Virus record (IMG/VR): IMGVR_UViG_3300015370_000050
Span: 1 to 24,134 of that record
Direction: 5' to 3' (one strand)
Length of the DNA: 24,134 nt
Origin: a virus
Taxonomy: Duplodnaviria; Caudoviricetes
How positions within the stretch are numbered: the stretch's first letter is position 1; every line of letters starts with the position of its first letter. Below, one piece after another: positions 51-24,104 of the stretch. Position numbers and translations under genes: made by a program. The notes under the pieces were generated by a model. That model searched no databases and was not told where the DNA came from. It was given only the letters and a program-made list of their open reading frames with translations.

Positions 51-2117
51 GTGCACTTCCCTCGCCGATTCCAGCCACCCATGGTCGAAGAGACCATCGC
101 TGCGCAAGAGCACTTCGCTGTACTGCCGTCGATGCTCATCAACCAGCTCGTGATGATCCCGGCGAGCGGTAAGAAGATCCCGTTGTCGTACGAAGGAAAC
201 CCGTATCTTAGACAACAGATAGATGCGTTTCCATCACACCCAAAACAGATGTTTATGTACGGACGTCAGACTTACAAATGTCTTGAGGAAAATCAACGGG
301 TTAGGATGGCCGACGGCGGTTTCAAGCCGATCAAGGACGTCTACGTCGGCGACGAAGTCCTGTCGTTTGATGAGAGCACAAACCAGCTCGTAACCGGCGT
401 CGTCTCCTGGAAGTCCCCACGGTACAAGAAGCGCTGCATCTGTGTTCGAACGTGGCGTGGTGAGCAGGTGATCTTCGGTGAGACCCATCCGCTGCGCGAG
501 GAGCGCTCATGGACTCCGGTAAAGGACCTCCACATCGGGTCGAACGTCGCCCACGTCGTCGGAGACAAGGTAGACTGGGGCTTCATCCGTGTGATGGACG
601 ACGTCGGAGAGCAGTGGTGCTACGACCTCGCCGTTGATGGCACGTCGAGCTTCATTGTCGATGGCCTCGTCACCCACAACAGCACGTCGATCTCAGCGCA
701 GATACATGCGTACATCAACACCCTCGGGATCACGTGGCAGTACGTGTCAGCGACGATGGAGCAGGCGCGCGAGTTCTCGCAGTGGAAGCTGGACGGCGCC
801 ATCCGCGACTCCGACATCCTCTCCGGGTTCTTCGACCAGTCCGGCAACCGTCGCCCCTACAACGTGAAGCGGAAAGAGTCCTTCGCCGGCGGCCGTGTGT
901 TGATCGGCACCGCCTACGGCGACGCCGCTCGAATCCGTGGTAACCCCGCCGACGCGCTTTCCATCGACGAGATCGCCCTCGTCGACCTCGACGCCATCGG
1001 AGTGCTCCGGGAGTGCCTGTCTGCGTCCACGTACGGCTGGGAGCTCCACGCAGGTACGCCGCTGTCGACGGACAACCCGCAGTGGATCATCTGGTCGGAG
1101 CGTTCGAAGCAGCACGAGTGGGCCGTACCGTGCGACCGCCACTCTCCTCGGGTGTGGAACATCCTCGGCGTCAAGAACCTCACGCCCTATGGAATCATCT
1201 GTGAGCGCTGCGGCGAGCCCATCGACACGCGCAACGGGCGTTGGATCATTACGGCGGAGCCCAACCTGTACACCTACGACTCGTACAGGTTGCCGCAGAT
1301 CGCCAGCCCGACAGCGAAGTTCGACGAGATCGTTCGCAGGCTCATCGACGAGCCGGTGATCACGATGCGCGAGTCTTTTGCGTACTCCGTCGAGCAGGCC
1401 TCGGAGGTCTTCAGTGACCACTTCCTCACGCAGATCTCAGAAGACAACCTGCGCATCTCACCAGAGAACTTCGTGCGCTTGTCCACGACGCGCCCGATGG
1501 TCGCAGGCATCGACTGGGCGCAGCCGGACCCGAAGGACCCGCAGGCAGCGGGTGCGGCGACGACGCTCACGTTGGGCTGCTACACCGGTCCGGAGAAGTT
1601 CACGTGGATTGCAGCGTTCCGCTTCCGTGGAGATCCAGACCGCGACCTCGACGAGATCTGTCGCATCATCGACTCAGTCCATGCACACCGCATCGTCGCA
1701 GACCACGGCGCCGGGTACAGTCGAAACATTCGGATGATGCAGCGATACAAGTTCCCGCGGTTCATGGCGTGCAAGTACAACCGTCAGGACGAGCCGATCA
1801 ACATCAATCCGAAGAGCTTCAGGCTCTCGGTGGACCGAAACACCTGCCTCGACGCGCTGGCGACCAACATCCGGATGCACCCGAATAAGTACAGCGTCCC
1901 GTGCCGTCGAGACATGGAGCGAGCGCACTGGTGGCAGGACCTACGCGCCGTCCTCGTCGAGTACGACAGCCTCGGACGCACGTTGTTCGTGAAACGCTCC
2001 GGTAAGACCGACGACCACTGGCACTCGATGTTCTATTGTTTCCTCGCCGCCCACACGATCCATCCCCGTCTCGACGTCTTGGCTCCCATCGTGACGAAGA
2101 CAATGGACGACGACTAG
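51..2117 (+). CDS. terL: Large terminase subunit, intein-containing (about 554 aa after splicing)
   Basis: Walker A GRQTYK|ST split by the intein, Walker B LSIDEI preceded by IRG, coupling motif AGTP, Cys pairs (PCDRH...CERC), RuvC-like nuclease motifs AGIDWA, IVADHG and DDHWHS. Start is GTG 51 or ATG 81. Confidence 0.92.
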   Translation: MHFPRRFQPPMVEETIAAQEHFAVLPSMLINQLVMIPASGKKIPLSYEGNPYLRQQIDAFPSHPKQMFMYGRQTYKCLEENQRVRMADGGFKPIKDVYVGDEVLSFDESTNQLVTGVVSWKSPRYKKRCICVRTWRGEQVIFGETHPLREERSWTPVKDLHIGSNVAHVVGDKVDWGFIRVMDDVGEQWCYDLAVDGTSSFIVDGLVTHNSTSISAQIHAYINTLGITWQYVSATMEQAREFSQWKLDGAIRDSDILSGFFDQSGNRRPYNVKRKESFAGGRVLIGTAYGDAARIRGNPADALSIDEIALVDLDAIGVLRECLSASTYGWELHAGTPLSTDNPQWIIWSERSKQHEWAVPCDRHSPRVWNILGVKNLTPYGIICERCGEPIDTRNGRWIITAEPNLYTYDSYRLPQIASPTAKFDEIVRRLIDEPVITMRESFAYSVEQASEVFSDHFLTQISEDNLRISPENFVRLSTTRPMVAGIDWAQPDPKDPQAAGAATTLTLGCYTGPEKFTWIAAFRFRGDPDRDLDEICRIIDSVHAHRIVADHGAGYSRNIRMMQRYKFPRFMACKYNRQDEPININPKSFRLSVDRNTCLDALATNIRMHPNKYSVPCRRDMERAHWWQDLRAVLVEYDSLGRTLFVKRSGKTDDHWHSMFYCFLAAHTIHPRLDVLAPIVTKTMDDD
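279..680 (+). mobile_element. Mini-intein (134 aa, Hint domain only) in the terminase Walker A motif
   Basis: Starts CLEENQRVRMADG (block A), has a block B-like GETHPL and block F CYDLAV, and ends LVTHN followed by Ser as the +1 nucleophile. Removal restores GRQTYKST. Too short for a homing endonuclease. Confidence 0.93.
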
Positions 2118-2172: not shown

Positions 2173-3093
2173 ATGGCCGAATTTCAGCCTTCCGATTACA
2201 CCGAGATGGCCGTCAAGGCCAAGAACGCGCTGATCGACACTGGCGTGCCGCTCAACGCCGCGATCGCCAAGATCGCCGAGGCGGAGAAGCTGGACACGAA
2301 GCAGACGCGGCTCGTCGTGAACCTCGCGAACCGTTTCGCCAGGAACGCGATCGCCAAGCACGCGACCTTCGTCGAGTTCGACGTCGCCGATCCAGAGGCT
2401 GTCGACAAGATCGTCGCAGCGGGTCGTGTGGCACGCGTCCTCGAGAAGAAGGCGGAGATGCCGTCGCAGGGGTTCAACATGCAGCCCACAGGGCCCGTGC
2501 AGGTCAACCCGCCGGATCCGGAGTGGGGCGCGCCCATGCCGGCGCAGGACTTCACCACGCTGACACAGAAGATCCAGGAAGCGAAGGTGAAGCTGGCGAT
2601 GTCGCTGCAGAACCTCGACGCTCAGATCGACGGGCTTCTGAAGATGGCAAGCTGCGAGATCACCCAGGGCGAGATGCTCATGGCCGCCGCTGTCGTCGAC
2701 GGCATGGACGCACCGTTCTGCACGCACTACTGCCACAAGAAGCTCGACCCGGACGCCTGCAGCGACGTGGCGAAGTACGCTGGGATGGAAGTCGACGAGA
2801 ACGACGAGCTCGTGAAGGCCTTCGTTCTCTTGAAGGAGGCGTCGCACGAGTACGTCACGCTGCTTCCCGAGCTGGAGAAGGAGGCGATCCTTGGCGGGAT
2901 CGCCAAATTTCTGATGAAGAACCCGATGGGCAAGCTCGGTGCGTTGCTGTTCGGGTCCGCGCTGCTCGGCGGAGCCAAGTCAGGCACGTCTATGGCGAAG
3001 AAGGGAATGAGTGTCGGTGCCGGCGTGCCTGGAGAGATCACCTCCATGCGCTCGAAGCTCGGAATGCCTGCGCTCACACCGATGGGGGTGTAA
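2173..3093 (+). CDS. Putative head-associated protein; acidic N-terminal part, ELEKEA site, basic Gly-rich C-terminal peptide
   Basis: Strong SD and GC3-rich codons. Lies between terminase and protease. Carries several K-x-A motifs (LEKKA, LLKMA, LKEA, ELEKEA). Confidence 0.75.
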   Translation: MAEFQPSDYTEMAVKAKNALIDTGVPLNAAIAKIAEAEKLDTKQTRLVVNLANRFARNAIAKHATFVEFDVADPEAVDKIVAAGRVARVLEKKAEMPSQGFNMQPTGPVQVNPPDPEWGAPMPAQDFTTLTQKIQEAKVKLAMSLQNLDAQIDGLLKMASCEITQGEMLMAAAVVDGMDAPFCTHYCHKKLDPDACSDVAKYAGMEVDENDELVKAFVLLKEASHEYVTLLPELEKEAILGGIAKFLMKNPMGKLGALLFGSALLGGAKSGTSMAKKGMSVGAGVPGEITSMRSKLGMPALTPMGV

Positions 3094-3095
3094 CG

Positions 3096-3587
3096 ATGAA
3101 GGTACCCACGCACTCGTTCCCGTCGCCGTTCGCTCTCAAGTCAGGCAGCGGCATCGGGCAGTCGATCATGCGCGCGCTCAAGGTCGGTGGGAAGATCACC
3201 GCGCTGGGTGCGCTCGCGCCGATCACGTCGCTGGCGCTCCTCGGGCTCCTCGAGCGCAAGGACAGGGCGTCTGAGCGCATGTCCCGTGGACACGACTTTC
3301 GGAAGGTGCTCGAAGAGGCCCCGTCGCTGGCGAAGGATCGGGCGATGGCGGAGAAGCACTTCCGCACCTTGCGTCGGGTGGCTCCGGACATCTCCAGGGA
3401 CCCGGTTCTCGCTGCAGGTCTCGTGAAGAAGCTCAACGCCTACGCCGACCGCGAAGACGGTGGCGTCGATCCGTCGGTCATCCAGAACCTTCTGATGCGC
3501 CCGGACACGTCGCCCATGAAGAAGTGGGACGTCGCTTCGCGGACGCTTCCGCAGACGAAGGTCGACATCGCAAGCTGGGAGCTGTAA
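3096..3587 (+). CDS. Hypothetical virion protein (163 aa) with an N-terminal hydrophobic segment
   Basis: True start is probably ATG 3096, just after the TAA at 3091-3093 with GGGGG upstream; the ORF track extends the frame to 2523. Hydrophobic stretch ITALGALAPITSLALLGLL. Confidence 0.75.
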   Translation: MKVPTHSFPSPFALKSGSGIGQSIMRALKVGGKITALGALAPITSLALLGLLERKDRASERMSRGHDFRKVLEEAPSLAKDRAMAEKHFRTLRRVAPDISRDPVLAAGLVKKLNAYADREDGGVDPSVIQNLLMRPDTSPMKKWDVASRTLPQTKVDIASWEL

Positions 3588-3920
3588 ATGAAGATTGGAA
3601 AAGAGCTCCAGAAGATGGCCGGCGACTACACGAAGCGGATGATGGCATTGAACGCCGGTGGACTCGAGCGCTCCGCCGAAGCGGCGAACAAGCGCGAGGC
3701 GCTCGTTGGCAAGCTGCACGCGAAGCTCACGAGCCCAGCACTGAAGACACCGGGAAAGCCCGAGTCCCCTCTCGCCAAGGCACTCATGACCACGTCGGTC
3801 AAGCGTGGGAACGAGGCGCTCACAGCTACAGAAAAGGCAGAGGACGCCAAGCGTGTGCTGCGCGGGTTCAAGTCTCCCGACGCTGTCACGCGTGCGTCTC
3901 TCAGGAAGAAGGGGGGCTAA
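3588..3920 (+). CDS. Small basic protein with N-terminal ELQKMA motif (putative internal head protein)
   Basis: TAAATG coupling to the upstream gene, GGGAG SD, Lys/Arg/Ala-rich sequence. Confidence 0.75.
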   Translation: MKIGKELQKMAGDYTKRMMALNAGGLERSAEAANKREALVGKLHAKLTSPALKTPGKPESPLAKALMTTSVKRGNEALTATEKAEDAKRVLRGFKSPDAVTRASLRKKGG

Positions 3921-3923
3921 TCG

Positions 3924-5669
3924 TTGGCGACCCCAAAGAACAACGTCGTTCCGATCGACTTCACCCAGGGTATCGAGAAGCACTGGGAGGTTCCGGAGAC
4001 GACTGTTCTCGGAACACGGTCGATGATATCGCTCGAGTTGCAGAAGCATGCGTCGATGGGGCTCACCAACGACGAGGCGCGCCACCTCACACCCGAGCTC
4101 GCGAAGTTCGTCAATTCGCTCAAGAGCGACGCCAACTCCACCTATCAGATTGTCGTGCCCATCGGGATTGGGGACATCTGGGGCGTCAACTTCCGCGGTG
4201 ACCTCGTCTACAGAGACCAGATGGTCCCGGACGTGGACTCCGAAGCGTACCGTGCACGCCCGTACGGTTACCCGACGTTCAACACGGCGCACTTCTTCGC
4301 GCACCACAAGAACAAGCCTGCGCAGGGCCACCCCATCCTCGGGGACGTGCCCTTCGCGACGCTCAATCCGAAGATGAATTGGATCGAGATGGTCGTCAGG
4401 TCGCACCTCCCGTCCGTCGAGGAGAGTCATCCGGAGCTGCTGTCGGCGATCATCAGCGGGGAGTTCCCGGTGAGCATGGGCTTGCTCGCCATCGCCGACG
4501 TCTGCCTGAAGTGCGGCAACGTGCGCAAGGGACCGGCAGCACGGCCCTGCGTGCACATCCTCCCGCCCAGCCAGGGCGGTGAGCTCGGGCGCATCTACGC
4601 CGACGCCTCCGTCGCCGGGATGAGTAACATCCAGCCGCGGTTCTTCGACATCTCCTACGTGAATCGCGGCGCCGACTCCATCGGGTTCGCGTTGAAGAAG
4701 GTCGCCAAGGCGGACTTCGAGCAGACGCGTGAGACCATTGTGATCCGCGACGCCATCGCTCAGATGAAGCAGAAGGGTCTCCTGGATAAGGTCAAGAAGA
4801 TCCCGAAGAAGGGCGACACCGGTGAGCTCGAGAAGTACTCGAAGCTCAAGAAGGCTGTCAGCGCTCTCTCCGCAGAGGAGCCTGACATCGAGCCCGTCGC
4901 GTTGAAGAAGATGGCCGAGGCTGGTGGCCTCGGTCTGCTCGACGCCATGGCGCTGTCTGGGATGCTGCTTCGACCACACGAGTTCCAGACCGCCTACCTC
5001 GGTGCCGTGCACCCCGCGCGCGCGGGTGAGCTGATGCTGGCGAAGCGGACCTTCCCGATGTCCCCGACGGATCTCGTCGGGATGCCGTCGATGAGCGACC
5101 TCCCGTTCCGTGTGGCACCGTCGGGCGTGAAGATATGGGTCGGGCAGAACTTGAGCCCGTGGAAGTCCTGGGACGCTCAGATGCTCATCCACCGGATGCT
5201 CGCGCCGCAGCCGGTGATCCAGTCGGTGACCCCGCAGCAAGCGTGGACTCCGAACGTCAACGACATGACGATGAAGATGCAGTACCTGCAGTACCTCGCG
5301 AAGGCGTTGTCTGCGGTCATGGAGAAGGCGGCCTCCTATACCGGACCGAACGGGATGGAGCTCGTATACGACTCCGACGCGCTCGAAGTGCAGAAGGAAG
5401 CCTCGCTCGGTGCACTCGCTGCGGTTCTTCCGGCGCTGTACTTTGCGAAGCTTCTTGGCGCTGACGTCGCCGCCGGAGCGTTCCCGGGCATCGGCGCGTC
5501 GCAGGATCTCACCGGAAGCGGAAGCAGCGTCGAGCGCTCGTTGCTCCAGAAGCTCATCATGTTCAACCCGTTCCTGGCGACCAGCTTCGCCGGGATCGCC
5601 GGGAAGGGCGGCAGCGCTATGGTGAACAAACTCGACGACCTGTTGTTGCGGAGGTTGATGAAGAAATGA
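3924..5669 (+). CDS. Prohead (capsid maturation) serine protease with Zn-finger insertion and long C-terminal extension
   Basis: Motif order VNFRGD, AHHKNK (candidate catalytic His), VSMG (candidate catalytic Ser, 4473), CLKC...PCVH, FFDISYVNRGAD fits HK97/assemblin-fold phage prohead proteases. Upstream of the capsid gene. TTG start with a G-rich SD. Confidence 0.82.
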   Translation: MATPKNNVVPIDFTQGIEKHWEVPETTVLGTRSMISLELQKHASMGLTNDEARHLTPELAKFVNSLKSDANSTYQIVVPIGIGDIWGVNFRGDLVYRDQMVPDVDSEAYRARPYGYPTFNTAHFFAHHKNKPAQGHPILGDVPFATLNPKMNWIEMVVRSHLPSVEESHPELLSAIISGEFPVSMGLLAIADVCLKCGNVRKGPAARPCVHILPPSQGGELGRIYADASVAGMSNIQPRFFDISYVNRGADSIGFALKKVAKADFEQTRETIVIRDAIAQMKQKGLLDKVKKIPKKGDTGELEKYSKLKKAVSALSAEEPDIEPVALKKMAEAGGLGLLDAMALSGMLLRPHEFQTAYLGAVHPARAGELMLAKRTFPMSPTDLVGMPSMSDLPFRVAPSGVKIWVGQNLSPWKSWDAQMLIHRMLAPQPVIQSVTPQQAWTPNVNDMTMKMQYLQYLAKALSAVMEKAASYTGPNGMELVYDSDALEVQKEASLGALAAVLPALYFAKLLGADVAAGAFPGIGASQDLTGSGSSVERSLLQKLIMFNPFLATSFAGIAGKGGSAMVNKLDDLLLRRLMKK

Positions 5670-5929
5670 GCCAGTACGCATCTAGCTACGGACCATACGC
5701 GCAGGAATCTTTCATTGCGCAGCTGTCACCATTGAAGAAGGCACTGCTGCTCGGTGCCGGCGCGCTCCTCGCGCACCGCGCAGGGATCGGCATCAAGCGG
5801 GCCCTGATCACGACGAAGATGCGCACCGGCGCGATGAAGGCGCTCCCGCGAGAAGCGAAGATGCGCATGCTGAAGGAGATGGGGTTGAGCAAACCCTACG
5901 AGAACTGGGCAAAGAAGAAGATGTCATGA
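5666..5929 (+). CDS. Small basic protein with a hydrophobic segment
   Basis: ATGA overlap with the protease stop, GGAGG upstream, segment ALLLGAGALLA and a Lys-rich tail. Confidence 0.72.
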   Translation: MSQYASSYGPYAQESFIAQLSPLKKALLLGAGALLAHRAGIGIKRALITTKMRTGAMKALPREAKMRMLKEMGLSKPYENWAKKKMS

Positions 5930-6036
5930 GCGTCAAGGGTAAGCTGTTGAAGTTCGCCGTGCGCCATGGGATCATTTCGAAGCCGAAGGCGGTAAAGATG
6001 ATCCTGAAGCACTATCGCAAGCGGCTCGGTCTGTAG
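5926..6036 (+). CDS. 36-aa cationic peptide MSVKGKLLKFAVRHGIISKPKAVKMILKHYRKRLGL (below the ORF-track cut-off)
   Basis: ATGA overlap with the upstream stop. Fills the gap to the next gene's SD exactly. GC3-rich codons. Confidence 0.68.
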   Translation: MSVKGKLLKFAVRHGIISKPKAVKMILKHYRKRLGL

Positions 6037-6045
6037 GGGGCGACT

Positions 6046-7446
6046 GTGGACAAGAACATCGGACAGGCCGTAGAGGCGCTCATCGAGAAGAACGCAGGCG
6101 GGCTACAGAGCACTCTTCGTGCGCTAACCAAGCTCCGTGGGTTGAAGGCGGCCGGAACGGCGTCTGCTCAGCAGCTTGCGCGTCTTGCAGGCCTCGAAGC
6201 AAAGGCTGCTGGCCGTGTCGGTCGCTCTGGGATGAGCGCGCTAAAGGGTGTTAGCTCTCCGTCGCAGGTAGGGCAAGCGTTCGGAGGCAGAGTCGCAGGT
6301 GGGCTCGGTACTACCAATGCTGCTCGTGCTGCTTCGCATAAAGCCGGACTGATCTCCAATCTCGGCTCCGGAAATAAAAGAGCGTTCGAAATACAGGAAG
6401 GCTTGCGCAAGGGCACTGCGTCAAAGCTGAAGTTCGCTAAGGGTTCACAAGTAGGAGGATCCTACTCAGTCAGTGCAAACGTACGGCCGATTGGGGACAG
6501 AGGCTTCCTGCGCAACAAGTTCGGCATAGGTGCCCCTGAGACTGTGGGCAGCAAGCTGCGCACGATGGAAGCTCTTTCGGCGCAGCAGGCGGCGCAAGCT
6601 CGAGCCAAGCAGCAGGCGTCTTCGATGCTTGGCGGTGCTGAGCGCATGAGCGCTGGCGGCATGCCGCCGCGTGGACCCGTACCACCTACTCCGAAGCCGC
6701 AGCCGAAAGCTCCGGTACAGACTCCTCCGGTGACCCCGACTCCCACGCCTACGGTACAGCCGCAGGCGCCGCCCGTCCAGACGCTGGTACCGGATCCTAC
6801 GCTCGGACGCACGGTCGGCGCGCAGGCCGAGCAGCTCGCCAGTAACGTGCAGCGTCCTGGATTTTGGCAGCGTACTCGCTTGAACCCAGTGAACTGGGGG
6901 GCTGAGGGTGCGCATCAGCGGCAACTGCACGGTCAAGCGAAGGCGTTCGCCAAGACGCAGGTGGTCAATCGTCGTGCACTCGAGAGTGCCGGGCAGATGC
7001 AGACGGCGCGGACCGCCGACAAGGCGTGGGTCGAGCAGATGCGCGGTACAGGCATGAGCGACGACGCCATTCGTGTGAAGCTCCAGCAGCGAGGCGGCGG
7101 TCAGCACCAGCTCGGGAATCCCGGTTCGTACGCCGACGAGGTGATGGGTATACCGGGAGCGAAGACCCCGGCGAAGGTTCCCGGCGGTGGCGACAAGGTC
7201 GTGCGGGACAGCACCGGGAAAATCGTCAGCGAGGGCGGCGGCGGTTCGCTCGGGCAGACCCCGGTCGGCGAGAGCGCGAAGAAGCTCTCGCAGATGTCGC
7301 CGGCGCAGTACATGGAGTGGATCAAGGCGAACCCCGGCAAGGCCGCCCTCGGCGGGCTCGGCGTCGTCGGCGGGATGCACGTGGCAGGCAATGTTCTGGG
7401 TGGTGGCAGCCGTCGTCGTGGCGGCGGCGCCATCGCTACATACTAG
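6046..7446 (+). CDS. Basic Gly/Ala-rich putative internal virion or ejection protein with a Pro/Thr linker
   Basis: GTG start with AGGGGG SD, N-terminal LIEKNA motif, central Pro/Thr-rich linker, C-terminal KANPGKAALGGLGVVGG segment. Confidence 0.75.
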   Translation: MDKNIGQAVEALIEKNAGGLQSTLRALTKLRGLKAAGTASAQQLARLAGLEAKAAGRVGRSGMSALKGVSSPSQVGQAFGGRVAGGLGTTNAARAASHKAGLISNLGSGNKRAFEIQEGLRKGTASKLKFAKGSQVGGSYSVSANVRPIGDRGFLRNKFGIGAPETVGSKLRTMEALSAQQAAQARAKQQASSMLGGAERMSAGGMPPRGPVPPTPKPQPKAPVQTPPVTPTPTPTVQPQAPPVQTLVPDPTLGRTVGAQAEQLASNVQRPGFWQRTRLNPVNWGAEGAHQRQLHGQAKAFAKTQVVNRRALESAGQMQTARTADKAWVEQMRGTGMSDDAIRVKLQQRGGGQHQLGNPGSYADEVMGIPGAKTPAKVPGGGDKVVRDSTGKIVSEGGGGSLGQTPVGESAKKLSQMSPAQYMEWIKANPGKAALGGLGVVGGMHVAGNVLGGGSRRRGGGAIATY

Positions 7447-7455
7447 GAGGCCAAG

Positions 7456-7971
7456 ATGGCGCGCGACTACGACGACCTGGATTTCCTCGAGGAGCTGGAG
7501 AAGGACGCCGGTGTCCTCGGACTGCCCGGTGTCGCCGCTCTCAGCCGGCGCGCGATGCTGAAGCGCATCTCCGCCACCATCGGCCCGCACGCAGAGCAGG
7601 CGCTGCGTGGAAGCCCGATCGAGATGCGCGCGGTACACAAGATGCTGCGCAACATCCCGAAGGGCGGCACCACCGGCACCGCCGACCTCTCGCAGGTGGC
7701 GCCTGGGTTCCACCAGTACATCCTGAAGGGCAAGAAGCTCGAGGGCGAGATGCTGAACCGGCTCGTATCCCCGGACAAGCGCTCCGCTCTGGTGCGCCCG
7801 GCGACGCCGGATTCCATCCACGGGATCCTCGGTCAGCAGATGAAGCGCAACCCGCTCGCCACGCTCATCGCCGGCGGCGGTCTCGGTCTCGCCGCGAAGC
7901 GTCTCTATGAAGGCAAGGGCAAGGACAGCGATCGTGATCGCTCCGGGTCCCGCGCCATCGTCCTCTCCTGA
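7456..7971 (+). CDS. Putative internal virion protein: acidic 18-aa leader ending ELEKDA, then a basic domain
   Basis: SD TAGGAGG. Leader MARDYDDLDFLEELEKDA, C-terminal KRNPLATLIAGGGLGLAA. Confidence 0.78.
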   Translation: MARDYDDLDFLEELEKDAGVLGLPGVAALSRRAMLKRISATIGPHAEQALRGSPIEMRAVHKMLRNIPKGGTTGTADLSQVAPGFHQYILKGKKLEGEMLNRLVSPDKRSALVRPATPDSIHGILGQQMKRNPLATLIAGGGLGLAAKRLYEGKGKDSDRDRSGSRAIVLS

Positions 7972-8024
7972 TCCTAGATACCTCCTTTTTTAGTATCGAG
8001 TACTCACGTTCCGCGTTTTTCGTA

Positions 8025-8054
8025 TTGACAGGTCTGTTTTCATAACGGTACCAT
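8025..8054 (+). promoter_or_regulatory. Sigma70-like promoter upstream of the scaffold/capsid genes
   Basis: Perfect TTGACA (8025-8030), 18 nt, TACCAT (8049-8054) in the largest AT-rich intergenic gap (7972-8130), with T-tracts upstream. Confidence 0.7.
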
Positions 8055-8130
8055 GGTGCTGTCATCGAGAGAGCGCTTCCGAGCGCGAAGACCTCAATCC
8101 CACACAAAAGGTTCAAACGAGGAGGAATCC

Positions 8131-8745
8131 ATGAGCGGAAAGACTTGGGACGACGCACTGGCAGCGCTCTCCACGACCCAGGAGGAGCGAGACGGTCAGA
8201 TGCTGAAGAAGATCGCTGACATCGGCGATGCGCTGGAATCGCGTGGGACGAACTGGGGCGAGCTGGAGAACCAGCAGGCCGCAGCCATCCTGGAAGAGGC
8301 CGGAATCGGACCCGACGACTTCGCGCGGCTCGTGGAGTCGCAGCCCGAGGGTGCCGGAGCCGACGAGTCCAAGCTCGACGCCGAAGGCAAGCCCATCGTC
8401 GAGACCGCCGAGGGTGGCGTCCCCGAGGGCGAGGTCGAGTTCACCGACGAGGTCAAGGCAGACTTCAAGGCGAAGGCTCAGAGCATGACGGAAGAGGGGT
8501 GGCTCTCCTTCGTGAACGAGCTCACCGACGCGCAGGCCGAGAACGTCATGAAGCTCCTCGACGCAGACCCCGAGAAGGTGGCGGCGTGGGTGGAAGCCGA
8601 AGAGGCCTCCTACTACGGCACCATGCGCGCGTTCGCGGACATCGAGAAGGCGGCCAACGCGGTCCCCGAGGTCACCGCAGCGGATGCGGCCACCGCGGAG
8701 ATCAACACGCTCCTGGACAAGCACCTGCCAGCCGGCGACAAGTAG
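8131..8745 (+). CDS. Highly acidic putative scaffolding or prohead core protein (204 aa)
   Basis: ATG 8131 with SD GAGGAGG; the 8053 start overlaps the promoter. E/D/A-rich helical composition. Motifs LKKIA, PEKVA, IEKAA. Confidence 0.68.
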   Translation: MSGKTWDDALAALSTTQEERDGQMLKKIADIGDALESRGTNWGELENQQAAAILEEAGIGPDDFARLVESQPEGAGADESKLDAEGKPIVETAEGGVPEGEVEFTDEVKADFKAKAQSMTEEGWLSFVNELTDAQAENVMKLLDADPEKVAAWVEAEEASYYGTMRAFADIEKAANAVPEVTAADAATAEINTLLDKHLPAGDK

Positions 8746-8763
8746 TCGCCAAGGAGACGGGCT

Positions 8764-9129
8764 ATGACGCGCACCATCGCAGAAATCACCGCAGGCAAGT
8801 CGATCGACGCTCTCGTCGACGATTACCTCGGCGGCGACGCGTCCTCACCCAAGGCAGGTTCGGATGGAACGGAGCACGTGGCTTCGGCTGCAGACATGGA
8901 GGACGACTTCTCGAACGTGGCGCCCGGGTTTCCCGGTCACCTCGAGAAGCTCGCCGACTGGTGTGACGGTCTCGTGGACCAGCTCGAAGAGCTGCCCAAG
9001 ACGGCTGCGCTCACAGGTGATCTGCGGTACGAGTTCGCCGACGAGCTGCACGCACCGCCCGCTGTGGGCAAGGACCCGACCATCGAGTCCATGCTCGACC
9101 GCGTGCTGCGCGCAGGGAGGAAGTCATGA
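8764..9129 (+). CDS. Acidic hypothetical protein, putative prohead core component
   Basis: AGGAG SD, motifs LEKLA and LPKTA, position in the head operon. Confidence 0.7.
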   Translation: MTRTIAEITAGKSIDALVDDYLGGDASSPKAGSDGTEHVASAADMEDDFSNVAPGFPGHLEKLADWCDGLVDQLEELPKTAALTGDLRYEFADELHAPPAVGKDPTIESMLDRVLRAGRKS

Positions 9130-19345: not shown

Positions 19346-19857
19346 CCGATACGGGACTGCACCCAGGACCGTGATGTCACAACGCTTCGGATGACTGCGA
19401 CCACGTAGTCTTTGTGCGCGGCGTAGGCAACGAACGGCGCACTCGAGCTGATGACGTGCATGTTCGTGATGTTGCTCGTGCCGGTAGCGATGATCTTGTG
19501 CACGATCGTGCTCGGTCCACGAGGCTTCACGTCTATCTGCCTTGGGAGGTATACGATCGCGCCGTAGTATCTCCCGGGGAGGTCGGGAACGTCGTCGACC
19601 AAGTTCGGGGCCCAGTCCGGGTAGCGCTCTGCAAAGAAGTTCGTCGCTACCACGCGGTCCTGTTCTTCTATCCACTGTACGAAGATACCCCTGACAACGG
19701 CGGGGTCGATCTCGCGTACGCGTTCTGCGAAGCCGACGATATCGGCTGGGCGCACGTACCCATAGGCTAGAAGGAACTCGTACAGTGCTTGCGGCAGCTC
19801 GGAGATACGGACGGTCGTCAAGACGGAGACCGCCCGGATGACGTCCTCGTAGTTCAC
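19342..19857 (-). CDS. Hypothetical protein, last gene of the chaperonin operon
   Basis: GTG start overlaps the groEL stop (GTGA). Its stop overlaps the tube gene stop on the other strand (CTAG 19342-19345). Confidence 0.65.
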   Translation of the reverse strand: MNYEDVIRAVSVLTTVRISELPQALYEFLLAYGYVRPADIVGFAERVREIDPAVVRGIFVQWIEEQDRVVATNFFAERYPDWAPNLVDDVPDLPGRYYGAIVYLPRQIDVKPRGPSTIVHKIIATGTSNITNMHVISSSAPFVAYAAHKDYVVAVIRSVVTSRSWVQSRIG

Positions 19858-21473
19858 TTCTTGTCGCGCGGCTTCGTCAGCGCAGCGGCGGTGGTGCCGA
19901 GGACGCTTCCGCAGCCGTAGCTCGTGCGCAGCGCCTCGATGGACAGGATGGTGGGCTCGACGAGCTTGGTCTTCTTGAAGTCGGCAAACTTGTCGGTGAG
20001 GATGTTGTAGCCCACGTTGACCCCGCGGTTGAGCATCTCCCCGATGATCTGGTAGGTCGCCGTCTTCGGTGTCCCGGACTCCAGTGCGTTCGAGATGAGC
20101 TGCTCCAGCGGCGCCTGCACGACGGCCAGGAAGATGTCCTTGGCGGTCTGCCCGTCCACGTCGGTGGGCTCGTACTCACGGCCGACCTGGATGGCCCACT
20201 TGTACGCCACGCCGCCGGCGGGGATCACGCCCTGGCGAAGTGCCGCGAAGCACGCGTGGATGCCGTCCTCGACGAGGAACATGTTGGACTTGATCTCGGC
20301 GTCGTTGCGCCCGCCGACGAAGATGGTACCGACGCCACCGGCGAGTCGAGCGAGCCGCTCCTCGGTGTGCATGCGCTCCATCTCGTCGCAGTGCGGGAGC
20401 TCGTCGCGGATCTTGTTCATGCGCGCAGCGATCTCTTCCTCGTCTCCGGCGCCTCCGACGATGACGGTCTTCGCCGCAGATACGATGACGCGGCTGGCGG
20501 TGCCGAGGATGCCCTCACTGACGAGCTTCGATGGTTCGACCCGCGCGATGTCCCCGTGCGCTCCCTCGTTGTAGACGCGACCGTCGGTGACCAGTGCGAT
20601 GTCCTGCAGCACGTCCGTGCGCCGGGCACCGAATTTCGGGGCCTTGACGGCGACGATGCGCACCTTGCCGCGGGAGTTGTTCACGACGCAGGTGGCGAGG
20701 GCTTCGCCCACGACGTCGGCGGCGATGATCAAGAGGTTCTTCTTGCCCGCCATCGCCGCGTTGATCGCCGGGGCCACGGAGCGGCCGTCGGACAGGTTGC
20801 CGTCGAACACCAGGACGAAGCAGTCTGCGAAGTCCCAGCTGTCGGCGCCGATGCCCTCCACGAAGAACGGGCTCAGGAAGCCCCGGTCGAAGTGGAAGCC
20901 GGTGGTGATGTCCTTGTCGTGGTACCCGCTCCTGGACTGCTGGAAGGTCGCTACGCCGTCCACGCCGACGGCGGCGACGGTCTCGGCCACGAGGTCAGCG
21001 AGCTCCTCACGGTGGTTGCACGCGAGCGTAGCAACCTGCAGGAGGCTCTTCTTCGTGGATGTGATCTCCTCGCTGCGGCTCCCGATGACCCTACAGGACT
21101 CCGCGTACAAGCCTTCGAGGCGATCGAGGACGCTACGCTTGCGCCCGGCTGGCAGCATCAGGATGTGCTTCGCCAGCTCGGCTGCCAGGATCACCACGGA
21201 GGTCGTGCCGTCGCCGACCTTGGAGTTCATCTCGAGCGACGCCATGATGATGGTCTTCGCTGCGGAGTCAGCGACGTCGTCGTCGTGGCAGAAGCCCCGG
21301 GCGACAGTGACGCCGTCCTTCGTGTGCGTTGGGTTTCCGCCGTACTCGGGGTCGATCAGTACGTTCTGGCCCTTCGGTCCGAGGGTGACGCCCACGGCCT
21401 TGCGGAGAGCGTCGATTCCGAGGATCATCTGTTCGGCTGGATTGAGATTGACGTCTCGACGCTGCTGGCTCAT
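19854..21473 (-). CDS. groEL: Phage-encoded group I chaperonin GroEL (divergent)
   Basis: VTLGPKGQNV, TKDGVTVA, GDGTTS, FDRGFLSPFF, AVKAPKFGARR, ERLARLAGGV, VEDGIHA and GVIPAGG motifs. No C-terminal GGM tail. SD GAGGT at 21482-21486. Confidence 0.96.
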   Translation of the reverse strand: MSQQRRDVNLNPAEQMILGIDALRKAVGVTLGPKGQNVLIDPEYGGNPTHTKDGVTVARGFCHDDDVADSAAKTIIMASLEMNSKVGDGTTSVVILAAELAKHILMLPAGRKRSVLDRLEGLYAESCRVIGSRSEEITSTKKSLLQVATLACNHREELADLVAETVAAVGVDGVATFQQSRSGYHDKDITTGFHFDRGFLSPFFVEGIGADSWDFADCFVLVFDGNLSDGRSVAPAINAAMAGKKNLLIIAADVVGEALATCVVNNSRGKVRIVAVKAPKFGARRTDVLQDIALVTDGRVYNEGAHGDIARVEPSKLVSEGILGTASRVIVSAAKTVIVGGAGDEEEIAARMNKIRDELPHCDEMERMHTEERLARLAGGVGTIFVGGRNDAEIKSNMFLVEDGIHACFAALRQGVIPAGGVAYKWAIQVGREYEPTDVDGQTAKDIFLAVVQAPLEQLISNALESGTPKTATYQIIGEMLNRGVNVGYNILTDKFADFKKTKLVEPTILSIEALRTSYGCGSVLGTTAAALTKPRDKK

Positions 21474-21474
21474 C

Positions 21475-22936
21475 AGTGAATACCTCTTATGTTACGTGGT
21501 CGTACGTGTAGGCGATACCATTCGGTCGCCACAGCACGCGTGCTTTGTTGTACGAAACCGGAAAGTTGTCGTCCCCGACAATGCGAAGAGCTAAACAAGC
21601 AGTGCGAAGACTACGCACCGTGCCCACCACGACTCCACGAGTCCTGTGCGCAGCGCGCACTAAGTCCCAATGTCTAAATCCTTTGTACTCGTCGCGCTTC
21701 TTGGTGGGGTTGGCGTCCCACACTTTTGTTCGCCTGGGTGTAATCGAGAACCTTCCCGACGGCATCGTCGGGGTGTACGTCCGGCACACCATAGCTACAG
21801 CGTCGAGATCATGAGCCTTGTCGAGGCCGAGAGCTCGCCTCCAACACGTGGTCATCCAGCCACAGCAAGATGACACAACCAGTCCGAGACGGCGTAGCTC
21901 CTCACGCAGGTAGTGTTTTCCAGCCTGCAGATGTGCTGGGTACACGAAGCGACGAGGCCGCTTCGTCAGCGTCCACAATCCGTCGTGCAGCTCGGCGTGG
22001 CACTTCTCGCACAGGGTTATCCCGTTGCTTGGCGAGTTACCGCCACTGTTGCTGCGATACTGGATGTGGTGCGCTCGGAGCTCGTCTGGCGAGCTGCAGC
22101 GCTGACACTTGTACCGATCTCTCCAGAGTACCTTCGCTCGGAAATTCTGGCCCTCGTACTCTGCCTGCTGGAACTCCGCGCCGTACAGCTGCCTACCCGC
22201 AGCCATGCTGCTGATGTCGAATTGACCTTCCTCGACGACGACCTTGGTGATGCGAAGCACCCGTCCGAGGTCTTTGACTACGCGAAGAACGCTGTCTTTC
22301 TTCTGTCGGATCGTAGGTGGGATCCAACCCTTGCTACCGCGGTTGAGGAAGCGCGCTGGGCGATGCCGCAGCTTCCGACTCCTGCGCGCACGACGGTACG
22401 TCGCGCGTTGAGTCATCTTGCATTTCACGTCCTGACGAAGCCGTACGACCCCACGGAAGACGACCTCTTCGGTGTGCTCGTTCACGACGGCGATTCCGAC
22501 GTGCTTCGCACCGTCGTCGATACCGACGGTGAACTCACCGGCGGGGTTGTCGACGACACGGGTCAGTTGAATCGTGAACGGTACCACCTGGAACACCTTG
22601 GCTCTGCCTTCGCGCAACAGCTTCCTGGAGCGCGCAGGATGTGTGGGAAGTAACTGCTTCCCGGCAGCGTCGATGACGAAGACCTTCTGTGTCGCTGGTT
22701 TGGTCATCTAAGACCACCTCTCCCAAAGGGAAATTGTTGCTCTCGACAAACTGCGCCCCGTCTCTTTACGTGGGGTAGAACATTCTCCCCCACCCGCAGA
22801 GCTCCCGACTGAGCACATCTGGAGGTGCTTACCGGGGACAGATAGCCGGACGAACTCACCGCTGAAGATCGGCTTACAACCGGCTTAGTCTCGACGCTCA
22901 TTTATGACTCCTCATGGTCATCCTTCAGGGAGCGTC
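21475..22936 (-). mobile_element. Non-autonomous IS200/IS605-derived IscB cassette (about 1.46 kb) at the groES/groEL junction
   Basis: omegaRNA plus iscB with codon usage unlike the flanking genes. No tnpA in the window. Boundaries inferred from the first omegaRNA stem and from the reconstructed empty site (about 2 nt uncertainty). Confidence 0.65.
21487..22707 (-). CDS. iscB: IscB RNA-guided endonuclease (IS200/IS605 OMEGA; RuvC + HNH)
   Basis: PLMP-like N-terminus (VFVIDAAGKQLLPTHPARSRKLL...PFTIQL), RuvC-I GIDDG, Arg-rich bridge helix RRARRSRKLRHRPARFLNR, GWIPP, RuvC-II VVEEGQFD, HNH with CQRC/AHHI/NGITLCEKCH, RuvC-III KAHDLDA. 406 aa. Confidence 0.95.
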   Translation of the reverse strand: MTKPATQKVFVIDAAGKQLLPTHPARSRKLLREGRAKVFQVVPFTIQLTRVVDNPAGEFTVGIDDGAKHVGIAVVNEHTEEVVFRGVVRLRQDVKCKMTQRATYRRARRSRKLRHRPARFLNRGSKGWIPPTIRQKKDSVLRVVKDLGRVLRITKVVVEEGQFDISSMAAGRQLYGAEFQQAEYEGQNFRAKVLWRDRYKCQRCSSPDELRAHHIQYRSNSGGNSPSNGITLCEKCHAELHDGLWTLTKRPRRFVYPAHLQAGKHYLREELRRLGLVVSSCCGWMTTCWRRALGLDKAHDLDAVAMVCRTYTPTMPSGRFSITPRRTKVWDANPTKKRDEYKGFRHWDLVRAAHRTRGVVVGTVRSLRTACLALRIVGDDNFPVSYNKARVLWRPNGIAYTYDHVT

Positions 22937-22956
22937 TGGCAATGATGTTGTAGCGC
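22715..22956 (-). ncRNA. omegaRNA (HEARO-like) of IscB: scaffold about 22936 to 22715, predicted 5' guide about 22956-22937
   Basis: On the - strand: first stem GACGCTC/GAGCGTC, then AGACTAAG, stem AGCCGG/CCGGCT, CTGTCCCCG/CGGGGCGCAG, hairpin CTCCAGA-TGTGCTCAG-TCGGGAG followed by CTCTGCG, GTGGGG/CCCCAC hairpin, TTGTCGA then GAGCA (pseudoknot with loop TGCTC), and a 3' TCCC/GGGA hairpin. Directly upstream of iscB. Exact ends are inferred. Confidence 0.82.
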
Positions 22957-23195
22957 GGGACCGCCATGAAGAAGCGGTCTCCGATGCGGACTTCGACTTT
23001 GACGGATGCGTTGACTTCGAGCTCGTCGTCGGGCTTGTACACGCCGTCTTCGGTGGGCATGATGACCACGCAGTTCACTGAGTTCTGTGTCTTCTCGAGC
23101 GACGCAGAGGCGAGCAGGGCGACGTCCTTCGGGGGCGGCGGCTCATCGACGACGACCCACTCACCCACTGACGCCCAACCTGTCGTGTCTTGCAT
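22902..23195 (-). CDS. groES: Divergent GroES-like co-chaperonin
   Basis: 97 aa. VGEWVVVD (cf. PLGDRVVV), hydrophobic mobile-loop-like VALLASA, YKPDDEL (cf. VKVGDKV), EVRIGDRFFMAVPRYNIIA (cf. EVKIDGEEYLILRESDILA). First gene of the operon containing groEL. Confidence 0.78.
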   Translation of the reverse strand: MQDTTGWASVGEWVVVDEPPPPKDVALLASASLEKTQNSVNCVVIMPTEDGVYKPDDELEVNASVKVEVRIGDRFFMAVPRYNIIARRSLKDDHEES

Positions 23196-23218
23196 GTCAG
23201 TTCCCCCTGGTCTATGCT

Positions 23219-23248
23219 AGAGTAAGTTGCTGGCGTGCCGAGTGTCAA
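23219..23248 (-). promoter_or_regulatory. Sigma70-like promoter of the groES-iscB-groEL operon
   Basis: On the - strand TTGACA (23248-23243), 18 nt, TACTCT (23224-23219), then GGGGGA SD and the groES ATG at 23195. Confidence 0.68.
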
Positions 23249-23276
23249 GTATTTTGTTATACAAACCGAGGCGCCT

Positions 23277-24104
23277 ATGGCCGAACGCAAAGACTCCTCG
23301 ATGTTCCCGACGAAAGCTGTGCTTGCTGCCGGTGCGCTGAAGACGATGGCGGACGTGCCGAAGTTCATGGCGAGCGGGGAGCTGGAGAAGGCGATCCGCC
23401 AGAAGCTCAAGGTCGCAACGCCCGGAGCGCCGAGGGCGTTCACCAAGGCATCGTTCAAGCAGAGCGCCAAGTTCGCTCGCCGCGCAGCGAGCGGGTCGAT
23501 CCCAGGCATGCTGACCTTCCCGATTCTGGCGTCCGGTATCAAGGACGTGAGCTCCGACGACAAGGGCGACAAGGCGAAGGGGCTCGCGAAGATCCTCGGC
23601 GCTGGAGCGTCGTACTCGGCGATCAAGGGCGCTGCGGAGCACGGTGCACGACACAAGATGCTCACCGAGGAAGCCGCAGCGCTCAGCGGCAAGGACCTCC
23701 TGAAGAAGATGCCGCGCGCGAAGCTGCTCGCAGGTGCGAAGCCTTATATCGCCGGAGCCATCGCGAAGGGGCTTCCCGGAACCGCCGCTGCGATGATCCC
23801 TGCGATGGCGATCGCGTCCGGGCTCAAGAAGAAGGACGAGAAGTCGTCGAAGTCGATGATCCGCGCCGGCATCGCCGGCGGCGTCGCTACCGCCGCACGC
23901 GGCGGCATCGAGCGGGCGCTCTTCTTCAAGCGCATGGGCACGAAGATGTCGCCGAAGGTCACGCGCGAGATCCTCGCCACCATGGGATCCAAGGGCGCCG
24001 CCGGCGTCTTGGGCGGCCTCATCCTCGATCGCGCCGTGCGCTTCGCCATGAAGGGCAAGAAGGTCAAGCCGAAGCCCATGCAGCACGAGCTCGAAGGGCA
24101 GTAG
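23277..24104 (+). CDS. Very basic Ala/Gly/Lys-rich protein with hydrophobic Gly-rich segments (275 aa), putative internal virion protein
   Basis: ATG 23277 with GAGG SD; the 23235 start lies in the AT-rich promoter region. Composition resembles the basic head-cluster proteins. Confidence 0.72.
   Translation: MAERKDSSMFPTKAVLAAGALKTMADVPKFMASGELEKAIRQKLKVATPGAPRAFTKASFKQSAKFARRAASGSIPGMLTFPILASGIKDVSSDDKGDKAKGLAKILGAGASYSAIKGAAEHGARHKMLTEEAAALSGKDLLKKMPRAKLLAGAKPYIAGAIAKGLPGTAAAMIPAMAIASGLKKKDEKSSKSMIRAGIAGGVATAARGGIERALFFKRMGTKMSPKVTREILATMGSKGAAGVLGGLILDRAVRFAMKGKKVKPKPMQHELEGQ

Follow-up and report, generated by a model that had tools for sequence, protein, structure and literature searches.

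A transposase-less IscB-omegaRNA element of ISC2 type, inserted at the groEL ribosome-binding site within the last codons of a groES-like gene and with a guide predicted to consist of groES coding sequence, is the reading that we favor for the right end of this phage record, with a probability of roughly 0.68. The analyzed sequence (the window, all 24,134 nt of the stretch) is a 24-kb virus record in which the groES-like ORF, iscB, and groEL lie at the right end, all on the minus strand. The main features are as follows.

22902..23195, minus strand: groES-like co-chaperonin gene, 97 codons, with the element providing codons 87-97 and the stop (ORF call, ESM Atlas, hhalign, homolog ends)
22937..22956, minus strand: guide predicted from known IscB anatomy, adjoining the scaffold start on its 5′ side and spanning groES codons ~80-86
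22708..22936, minus strand: omegaRNA (HEARO-type) scaffold (Rfam match; 93% identical to the sibling element L003 over the first 300 nt; first stem in 13 elements)
21487..22707, minus strand: iscB, 406 aa, RuvC and HNH residues intact, PLMP motif reading QLLP
21487..22936, minus strand: proposed whole element, 1450 nt, no transposase, far end inferred
19854..21473, minus strand: phage groEL, 539 aa, Cpn60 family match, relatives at 81-42% identity, among which P0133 has 81% and P0134 77%

Elsewhere in the window, the terminase large subunit (51-2117, plus strand) carries a Hint/intein-like insertion at residues ~73-210. The head region (2173-9129 and 23235-24104) holds many Lys/Ala/Gly-rich ORFs with no family match, and the scan of its two large ORFs (3924-5669 and 23235-24104) against family models gave no matches. 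By sequence, this run of genes looks like a head-tail region.

The IscB protein and its omegaRNA

The IscB protein scored 284 bits against NCBIfam NF040563 (cut-off, 175), which places it in that family, and contained the Pfam RRXRR and HNH domains (PF14239 and PF01844, both above cut-off). In the alignment, D64, E159, D302, H214, N228, and H241 matched all 119 homologs; H213 was kept in 118, H237 in 117, and H299 in 114. The gene had no frameshift or stop, and all catalytic and zinc-binding residues were kept. The family match, the alignment, and the coordinates agree with the initial annotation, which had placed an iscB with intact RuvC and HNH residues between groES and groEL. The proline of the PLMP motif, replaced in the QLLP of the window, was present in 105 of 119 homologs. 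Nucleotide identity to L003 was 93-99% in the front part of the element and dropped to 63-66% over the last 370 nt. This low identity at the iscB end (21736-21514) suggests that the TAM-reading region was exchanged by recombination. By its sequence and its RNA the protein is an IscB-family member, for which RNA-guided, TAM-dependent cleavage is predicted.

A search with HEARO/omegaRNA models, proposed in the initial annotation as a check, returned Rfam RF02033: the full length of the model aligned to 22936-22731 (E 1e-5), and the 37.8 bits fell short of the gathering score of 83. At the gathering level, Rfam gave no match in the window. The first stem (22936-22930/22899-22893) paired at seven of seven positions, and the two stem differences of the window were compensated on the opposite arm. 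This stem formed five to seven of seven pairs in 13 of the 16 elements scored, the three others giving no anchor motif. It was absent from the RNAalifold consensus of three close sequences, and the minimum free energy of the whole region was not unusual (z = -0.89). In L003, whose IscB is 84% identical in protein sequence, a DNA polymerase A gene and a small ORF precede the element, and the DNA that L003 shares with the window begins only at ~22936. Element starts were compared among 19 examples: 12 had a GG-led motif, L003 had AG, the window had GA, and five had no motif; L118 was apparently truncated. In the available part of supplement file 8 of PMC13180657 (row 386), the published AceIscB-2 scaffold begins at the same GGAGC motif and runs to the base before the iscB ATG. 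An omegaRNA start at 22936 is supported by these sequence comparisons.

Because this start lies inside groES, groES codons 87-97 are scaffold and the ~20 nt upstream are the predicted guide. The complete pairing, the HEARO match from 22936, and the identity to the sibling thus uphold the earlier proposals that the first omegaRNA stem begins inside groES and that the last 11 groES codons and the stop are scaffold, with the stop supplied by the element; the guide made of groES codons is borne out as a prediction from the scaffold start. The 3′ end of the guide is uncertain by 1 nt, since AGA is common to both junctions. Its 12-nt seed occurred once in the window, and among 226 loci the predicted guide was found in one, the record of the window itself. 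According to the accessible portion of the Geobacillus study (10.1101/2023.03.14.532601), IscB guides come from the flank, and the target is the empty site. The atypical codons of the groES tail, to which the initial annotation had also pointed, were weak evidence, as 8% of 5498 11-codon windows and 2 of 13 native gene ends scored as low.

A further putative reading frame crosses the scaffold.

22704..22901, minus strand: putative 65-codon open frame, beginning immediately past the groES stop and overlapping the iscB start as ATGA

It is preceded by GAGGAG, and the same ATG and frame were open in L003 (2810-3004) and L117, although not clade-wide. This scaffold frame was open for at least 37 codons in 12 of 18 elements, vs. 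2 of 18 for the third frame, in sequences that are related and not independent. Such a frame could relay ribosomes across the insertion. All 18 elements scored had an in-frame stop directly before the iscB ATG (CTTAA or CTTAG), and in the elements scored a Shine-Dalgarno sequence inside the last scaffold hairpin preceded that stop and the ATG.

The groES-like gene and the far boundary

The 97-aa ORF upstream of the element had no match in Pfam, NCBIfam, or PHROG. In ESM Atlas, its features scored 0.93 against viral clusters in which 12-15% of the members have Cpn10, its fold had a TM of 0.66 against a Cpn10 cluster, and hhalign gave a weak colinear match to a profile of nine Pfam-confirmed GroES proteins (E 0.0033, probability 9.7%). 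Our own single-sequence structure model was too poor for use (pLDDT 49). From these sequence and model comparisons, the ORF before groEL is probably a divergent GroES. Its GroES-like homologs are 90-91 aa long, and the closest one found was 61% identical in protein sequence. Three GroES-like relatives stop three to five residues past YN(I/V)I(A/G/M). The tail attributed to the element was not a shared one: SLKDDHEES occurred in none of the three, and only RR stood at the corresponding tail position of P0122, a 91-aa protein ending in RREQS. Phage GroES and GroEL form a divergent family here (window 19854-23195; P0122-P0138) in which Pfam misses the GroES-like partner. No INPHARED entry exceeded about 35% identity to the GroEL of the window, and groES/groEL relatives exist only in metagenomes, as protein records.

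The operon promoter predicted by the initial annotation had a mixed outcome: a sigma-70 consensus scan of 21300-23400 returned no promoter sites, and a weak candidate could be read by eye.

23219..23248, minus strand: possible weak sigma-70-type operon promoter, with TTGACA (23248-23243), an 18-nt spacer, and a -10 hexamer matching at 3/6 positions (by eye)

The far end of the element was sought by removing the element in silico with 64 alternative cut points between 21530 and 21467. A cut at 21487 left AGA at both junctions and produced a GroES of 90 aa, with a stop that shares 1 nt with the groEL ATG. The other cuts with 3-nt cores, 21528 and 21502, produced longer GroES proteins (99 and 95 aa). 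A far end inside the iscB tail, by which groES would take over the last iscB codons, was dropped, since the product would have 92 aa and stop 13 nt short of the groEL start and since sibling elements continue far beyond this end. The best-fitting far end is probably 21487, which defines two further features.

21473..21487, minus strand: probable native groES tail, reading Arg-Gly-Ile-His-stop in the frame continued from groES, with the groEL Shine-Dalgarno sequence GAGGT (21486-21482) and the predicted TAM; its TGA overlaps the groEL ATG by 1 nt, and its length is in line with P0122
21493..21504, minus strand: subterminal hairpin of 4 bp (DNA fold), 6 nt before the proposed far junction

With this end, the groEL Shine-Dalgarno sequence GAGGT and the TGA would be native, and the earlier claim that the element supplies a new Shine-Dalgarno sequence for groEL is probably wrong. 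If the stop of P0122 overlaps its groEL as ATGA, the groEL start would lie at the same offset. Clear subterminal hairpins were present in L117, L118, L121, and L105 and were absent or weak in the others; those of L117, L118, and L121 are stronger than the 4-bp hairpin of the window and stand at about the same distance from the far junction. The GA at the junction of the window is unlike the GG of the clade. Empty groES-groEL alleles of related phages, which the initial annotation had suggested looking for, were not recovered: IMG/VR, GTDB, INPHARED, and four further virus records yielded no element-free groES-groEL DNA, so that the far end and the target are reconstructions.

Related elements at ribosome-binding sites

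The same element was found at unrelated sites with sharp ends (L003, L116, L117, L119, L121, and bacterial copies, with differing flanks). The arrangement is therefore not specific to groES, as had been implied; siblings show the same anatomy at unrelated genes. Related elements open with GGAGC, and their far end lies at the GG within the ribosome-binding site that serves the next gene. Of 24 far junctions, 21 had a start codon opening at least 50 codons 6-16 nt downstream, a partly circular count in that 13 of these junctions were chosen by eye. The other 11, from two bacterial genomes and a subgroup with ~59-61% protein identity, were placed where a common end gives way to unrelated sequence. 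Among these independently defined junctions, 9 of 11 had a start codon 6-16 nt downstream, vs. 17% of 13,076 background GG sites.

The junction survey covered 13 elements with both ends modeled (L162 being off by one base). In the window, L119, L121, and L101, the final codons of a long upstream frame (242 codons in L119, 134 in L121, and 101 in L101) contained the junction, and the element replaces the tail of the upstream gene. The 5′ junction lay on a stop codon in L117 and 20 nt past a stop in L116; upstream frames were shorter or unresolved in L096, L098, and L105, and there was none in L003, L097, L162, and L212. Several phage-type copies are followed by GGAG, and only GG was constant in the records G002 and G003. 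An empty ortholog of the bacterial copy L162 was sought in 31 genomes, where both flanks occurred only on separate contigs.

By sequence, the lineage tends to sit at ribosome-binding sites, by targeting or by selection. In packed operons these sites lie in the last codons of the previous gene, from which a guide of coding sequence follows. The groES-derived guide is thus likely a by-product of the landing preference of the lineage and not a weapon evolved against groES. The system itself is known; its preference for ribosome-binding sites is apparently undescribed. Literature on IscB, serine recombinases, Shine-Dalgarno sequences, TAMs, and large phages, covered in part, contained no IscB lineage targeting ribosome-binding sites, and Altae-Tran et al. 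2021 may include one.

Several other properties of the lineage were observed. One 126-kb virus record (G007) holds three IscB copies (L116, L118, and L122), of which L118 has no first stem. Among the copies (those of G007; L117/L123), scaffold subtypes and halves of the protein seem to be mixed. A 528-kb contig is the recorded source of P0006, the L116 protein. Gene-less copies of ~490 nt, with only the omegaRNA and the far end, occur in G002 and G003 (L162 at 1039-1525, L212, L215, and L216); two gene-less copies have both ends and sit before gene starts.

A transposase with matching ends was found at none of 20 resolvase loci and none of 9 Y1 loci. The window contains no serine recombinase, and G002, G007, and G009 (incomplete records) had no resolvase match; G002 had seven Y1 matches. 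Most clade members had GG at the two junctions; the window had GA at each, and L003 an ambiguous AG/GG. The mover may be a Y1 transposase or a serine recombinase: by analogy, the GG ends recall IS607, and the terminal hairpins and target-like start motif recall IS605.

Predicted action, alternatives, and known systems

IscB-bound RNA is trimmed to a short guide. In the window, read-through transcription from the groES promoter would run into the scaffold, and the 5′ end of the bound RNA would be trimmed to about 20 nt of groES, the guide. IscB would then cut DNA in which the guide sequence precedes the purine-rich native Shine-Dalgarno sequence, that is, the element-free allele, and would spare the occupied allele, where pyrimidines follow the guide sequence. 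After excision, repair templated by an occupied copy would retain the element, and the same repair could transfer it to a co-infecting phage of nearly identical sequence. Tolerance of the insertion is likely, since groES acquires a new stop and a tail longer by seven residues and groEL retains its own Shine-Dalgarno sequence.

The best match among solved structures was HfmIscB (9K2Z; E 1e-52, residues 9-398). The TAM listed for HfmIscB-2 in the available part of the supplement of PMC13180657 (row 132) is RNRRRD. The predicted empty site fits RNRRRD at 6/6 or 5/6 positions, depending on register, and the occupied site at 4/6 in both, with the qualification that this is the TAM of a distant relative whose transfer to the IscB of the window is not certain. 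A fit of only 4/6 at the occupied junction would give self-protection. An ATGA TAM as the main reading was dropped, since only GG is constant across the clade. Within the portions of the sources at hand, cutting of empty sites by IscB has been shown for Geobacillus elements (10.1101/2023.03.14.532601), and homing of OMEGA elements into co-infecting phages is described as theoretically possible (PMC13565253). By analogy with this known IscB biology, cutting of empty alleles and homing in co-infection would follow.

A related view, the stronger form of the reading in the initial annotation, is that the phage keeps the cassette as an RNA-guided competition nuclease against the groES-groEL operon of related phages, comparable to the free-standing homing endonucleases of T4-like phages. 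The intact nuclease residues, a guide within a gene that relatives also carry, the presence of several copies in large phages (three in G007), and the theoretical treatment of OMEGA homing in PMC13565253, as far as its text was available, all fit this view; we nevertheless consider it very improbable. Siblings and bacterial genomes show the same anatomy at unrelated genes, and no observation tells whether the phage or the element benefits. In addition, with the closest GroES relative only 61% identical, a 20-nt guide would reach only near-identical phages. The element may alternatively be a tolerated inactive passenger whose RNA is not matured or whose protein does not cut, a possibility that we rate as unlikely but as the less improbable of the two. 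AceIscB-2, the closest assayed homolog, has no listed TAM and the same QLLP variant, ribosomes finishing groES must pass through the first stem, and identity to L003 drops toward the iscB end as described. The blank TAM is weak evidence of inactivity, since many other rows in the available part of that table are also blank, and the lack of a frameshift or stop, the retained catalytic and zinc-binding residues, and a first stem kept perfect by compensated changes speak against a decayed element.

A different far end would change which sequences are native. An element extending to the groEL start codon (far end 21475-21474, N|ATGA-type) and supplying GAGGT itself would share GA at both junctions and leave a stop overlapping the groEL ATG by 4 nt, and N|ATGA targets are documented in the accessible part of PMC4810608. 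It would also bring the tail nearer to sibling length; with 21487, the tail of the window is ~17 nt shorter than those of L003, L116, and L117, which counts against 21487, and the motifs CACGT and GGTATT shared by the window and L003 tails would favor a later end. However, the resulting GroES would have 87 aa, shorter than all three homologs, with no Shine-Dalgarno sequence left for groEL, and removal exactly up to the groEL ATG leaves no stop nearby. An N|ATGA-type end is further contradicted by an element start other than GTCA and by clade members being followed, at varying distances, by ATGC, ATGG, and ATGT as well as ATGA, with GG constant. We regard this end as improbable, slightly more so than an inactive passenger and less so than a competition nuclease, and retain insertion at the groEL ribosome-binding site with a far end at 21487.

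The locus itself is an expected outcome of IscB biology. It sets up a direct conflict between translation of groES and folding of the guide RNA from the same transcript. A purine-rich, Shine-Dalgarno-like target, if true, would explain the persistence of the element in gene-dense phage genomes and would give testable G-rich TAM predictions for compact (~400 aa) IscB nucleases. The lineage would also be a natural system in which to test RNA-guided homing from one phage to another, a process treated as theoretical in the available text of PMC13565253. A wider proposal, which we put forward tentatively and consider unlikely to hold in full, is that of a distinct IscB transposon lineage, common in very large phages, that uses the Shine-Dalgarno GG as landing site and TAM, is possibly moved by a serine recombinase, which the literature covered does not report for IscB, repairs the operon with a new stop and a ribosome relay through the guide RNA, and spreads by RNA-guided homing in co-infection.

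Among known systems, AceIscB-2 (Kannan et al. 2025; PMC13180657, row 386) is close: over the part shown, its protein matches P0006/L116, which is 75% identical to the IscB of the window, and it shares the QLLP variant. It differs in its longer scaffold subtype (279 nt vs. 229 nt in the window), and its TAM column in the available part of supplement file 8 reads '-', which we take to mean that no activity was found. HfmIscB-2 resembles the system described here in a scaffold that starts with purines (AGGAC) and, as listed in the part of the source available, in a TAM, RNRRRD, that fits Shine-Dalgarno-like sites, but it is a distant relative from a gut metagenome.

ISC2 (Kapitonov, Makarova, Koonin 2016; PMC4810608) and GstIscB/ISGst (Meers et al.; 10.1101/2023.03.14.532601), according to the accessible portions of both reports, are likewise non-autonomous elements of ~1.4-1.6 kb that encode only IscB, with the RNA at the 5′ end, a flank-derived guide, and the empty site as target. 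Their ends are of GTCA type and their targets N|ATGA, GT|GA, or GT|GG, whereas the lineage of the window starts with GGAGC and has GG after its end. The available text of PMC4810608 also lists an unverified 'AA|GG ?' target for the ISC2-1_HH family.

IS607 elements with TnpB (ISFba1, TAM AGGAG, PMC11061315; CboIStron, GG core, 10.1101/2023.11.20.567912), as far as these sources were available, share with most clade members the GG junctions and the Shine-Dalgarno-like target. Unlike the elements described here, they have a TnpB nuclease with the TAM 5′ of the target and carry a serine recombinase, none of which was found here with matching ends; in the available parts of PMC10691335 and PMC9956272, serine recombinases are reported with TnpB and not with IscB. 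The free-standing homing endonucleases SegF and SegB of T4, as presented in the accessible part of PMC13565253, are also encoded between conserved phage genes and could cut the nuclease-free allele in co-infection. Their recognition is by protein only, whereas the target in the window would be set by an RNA that changes with each insertion.
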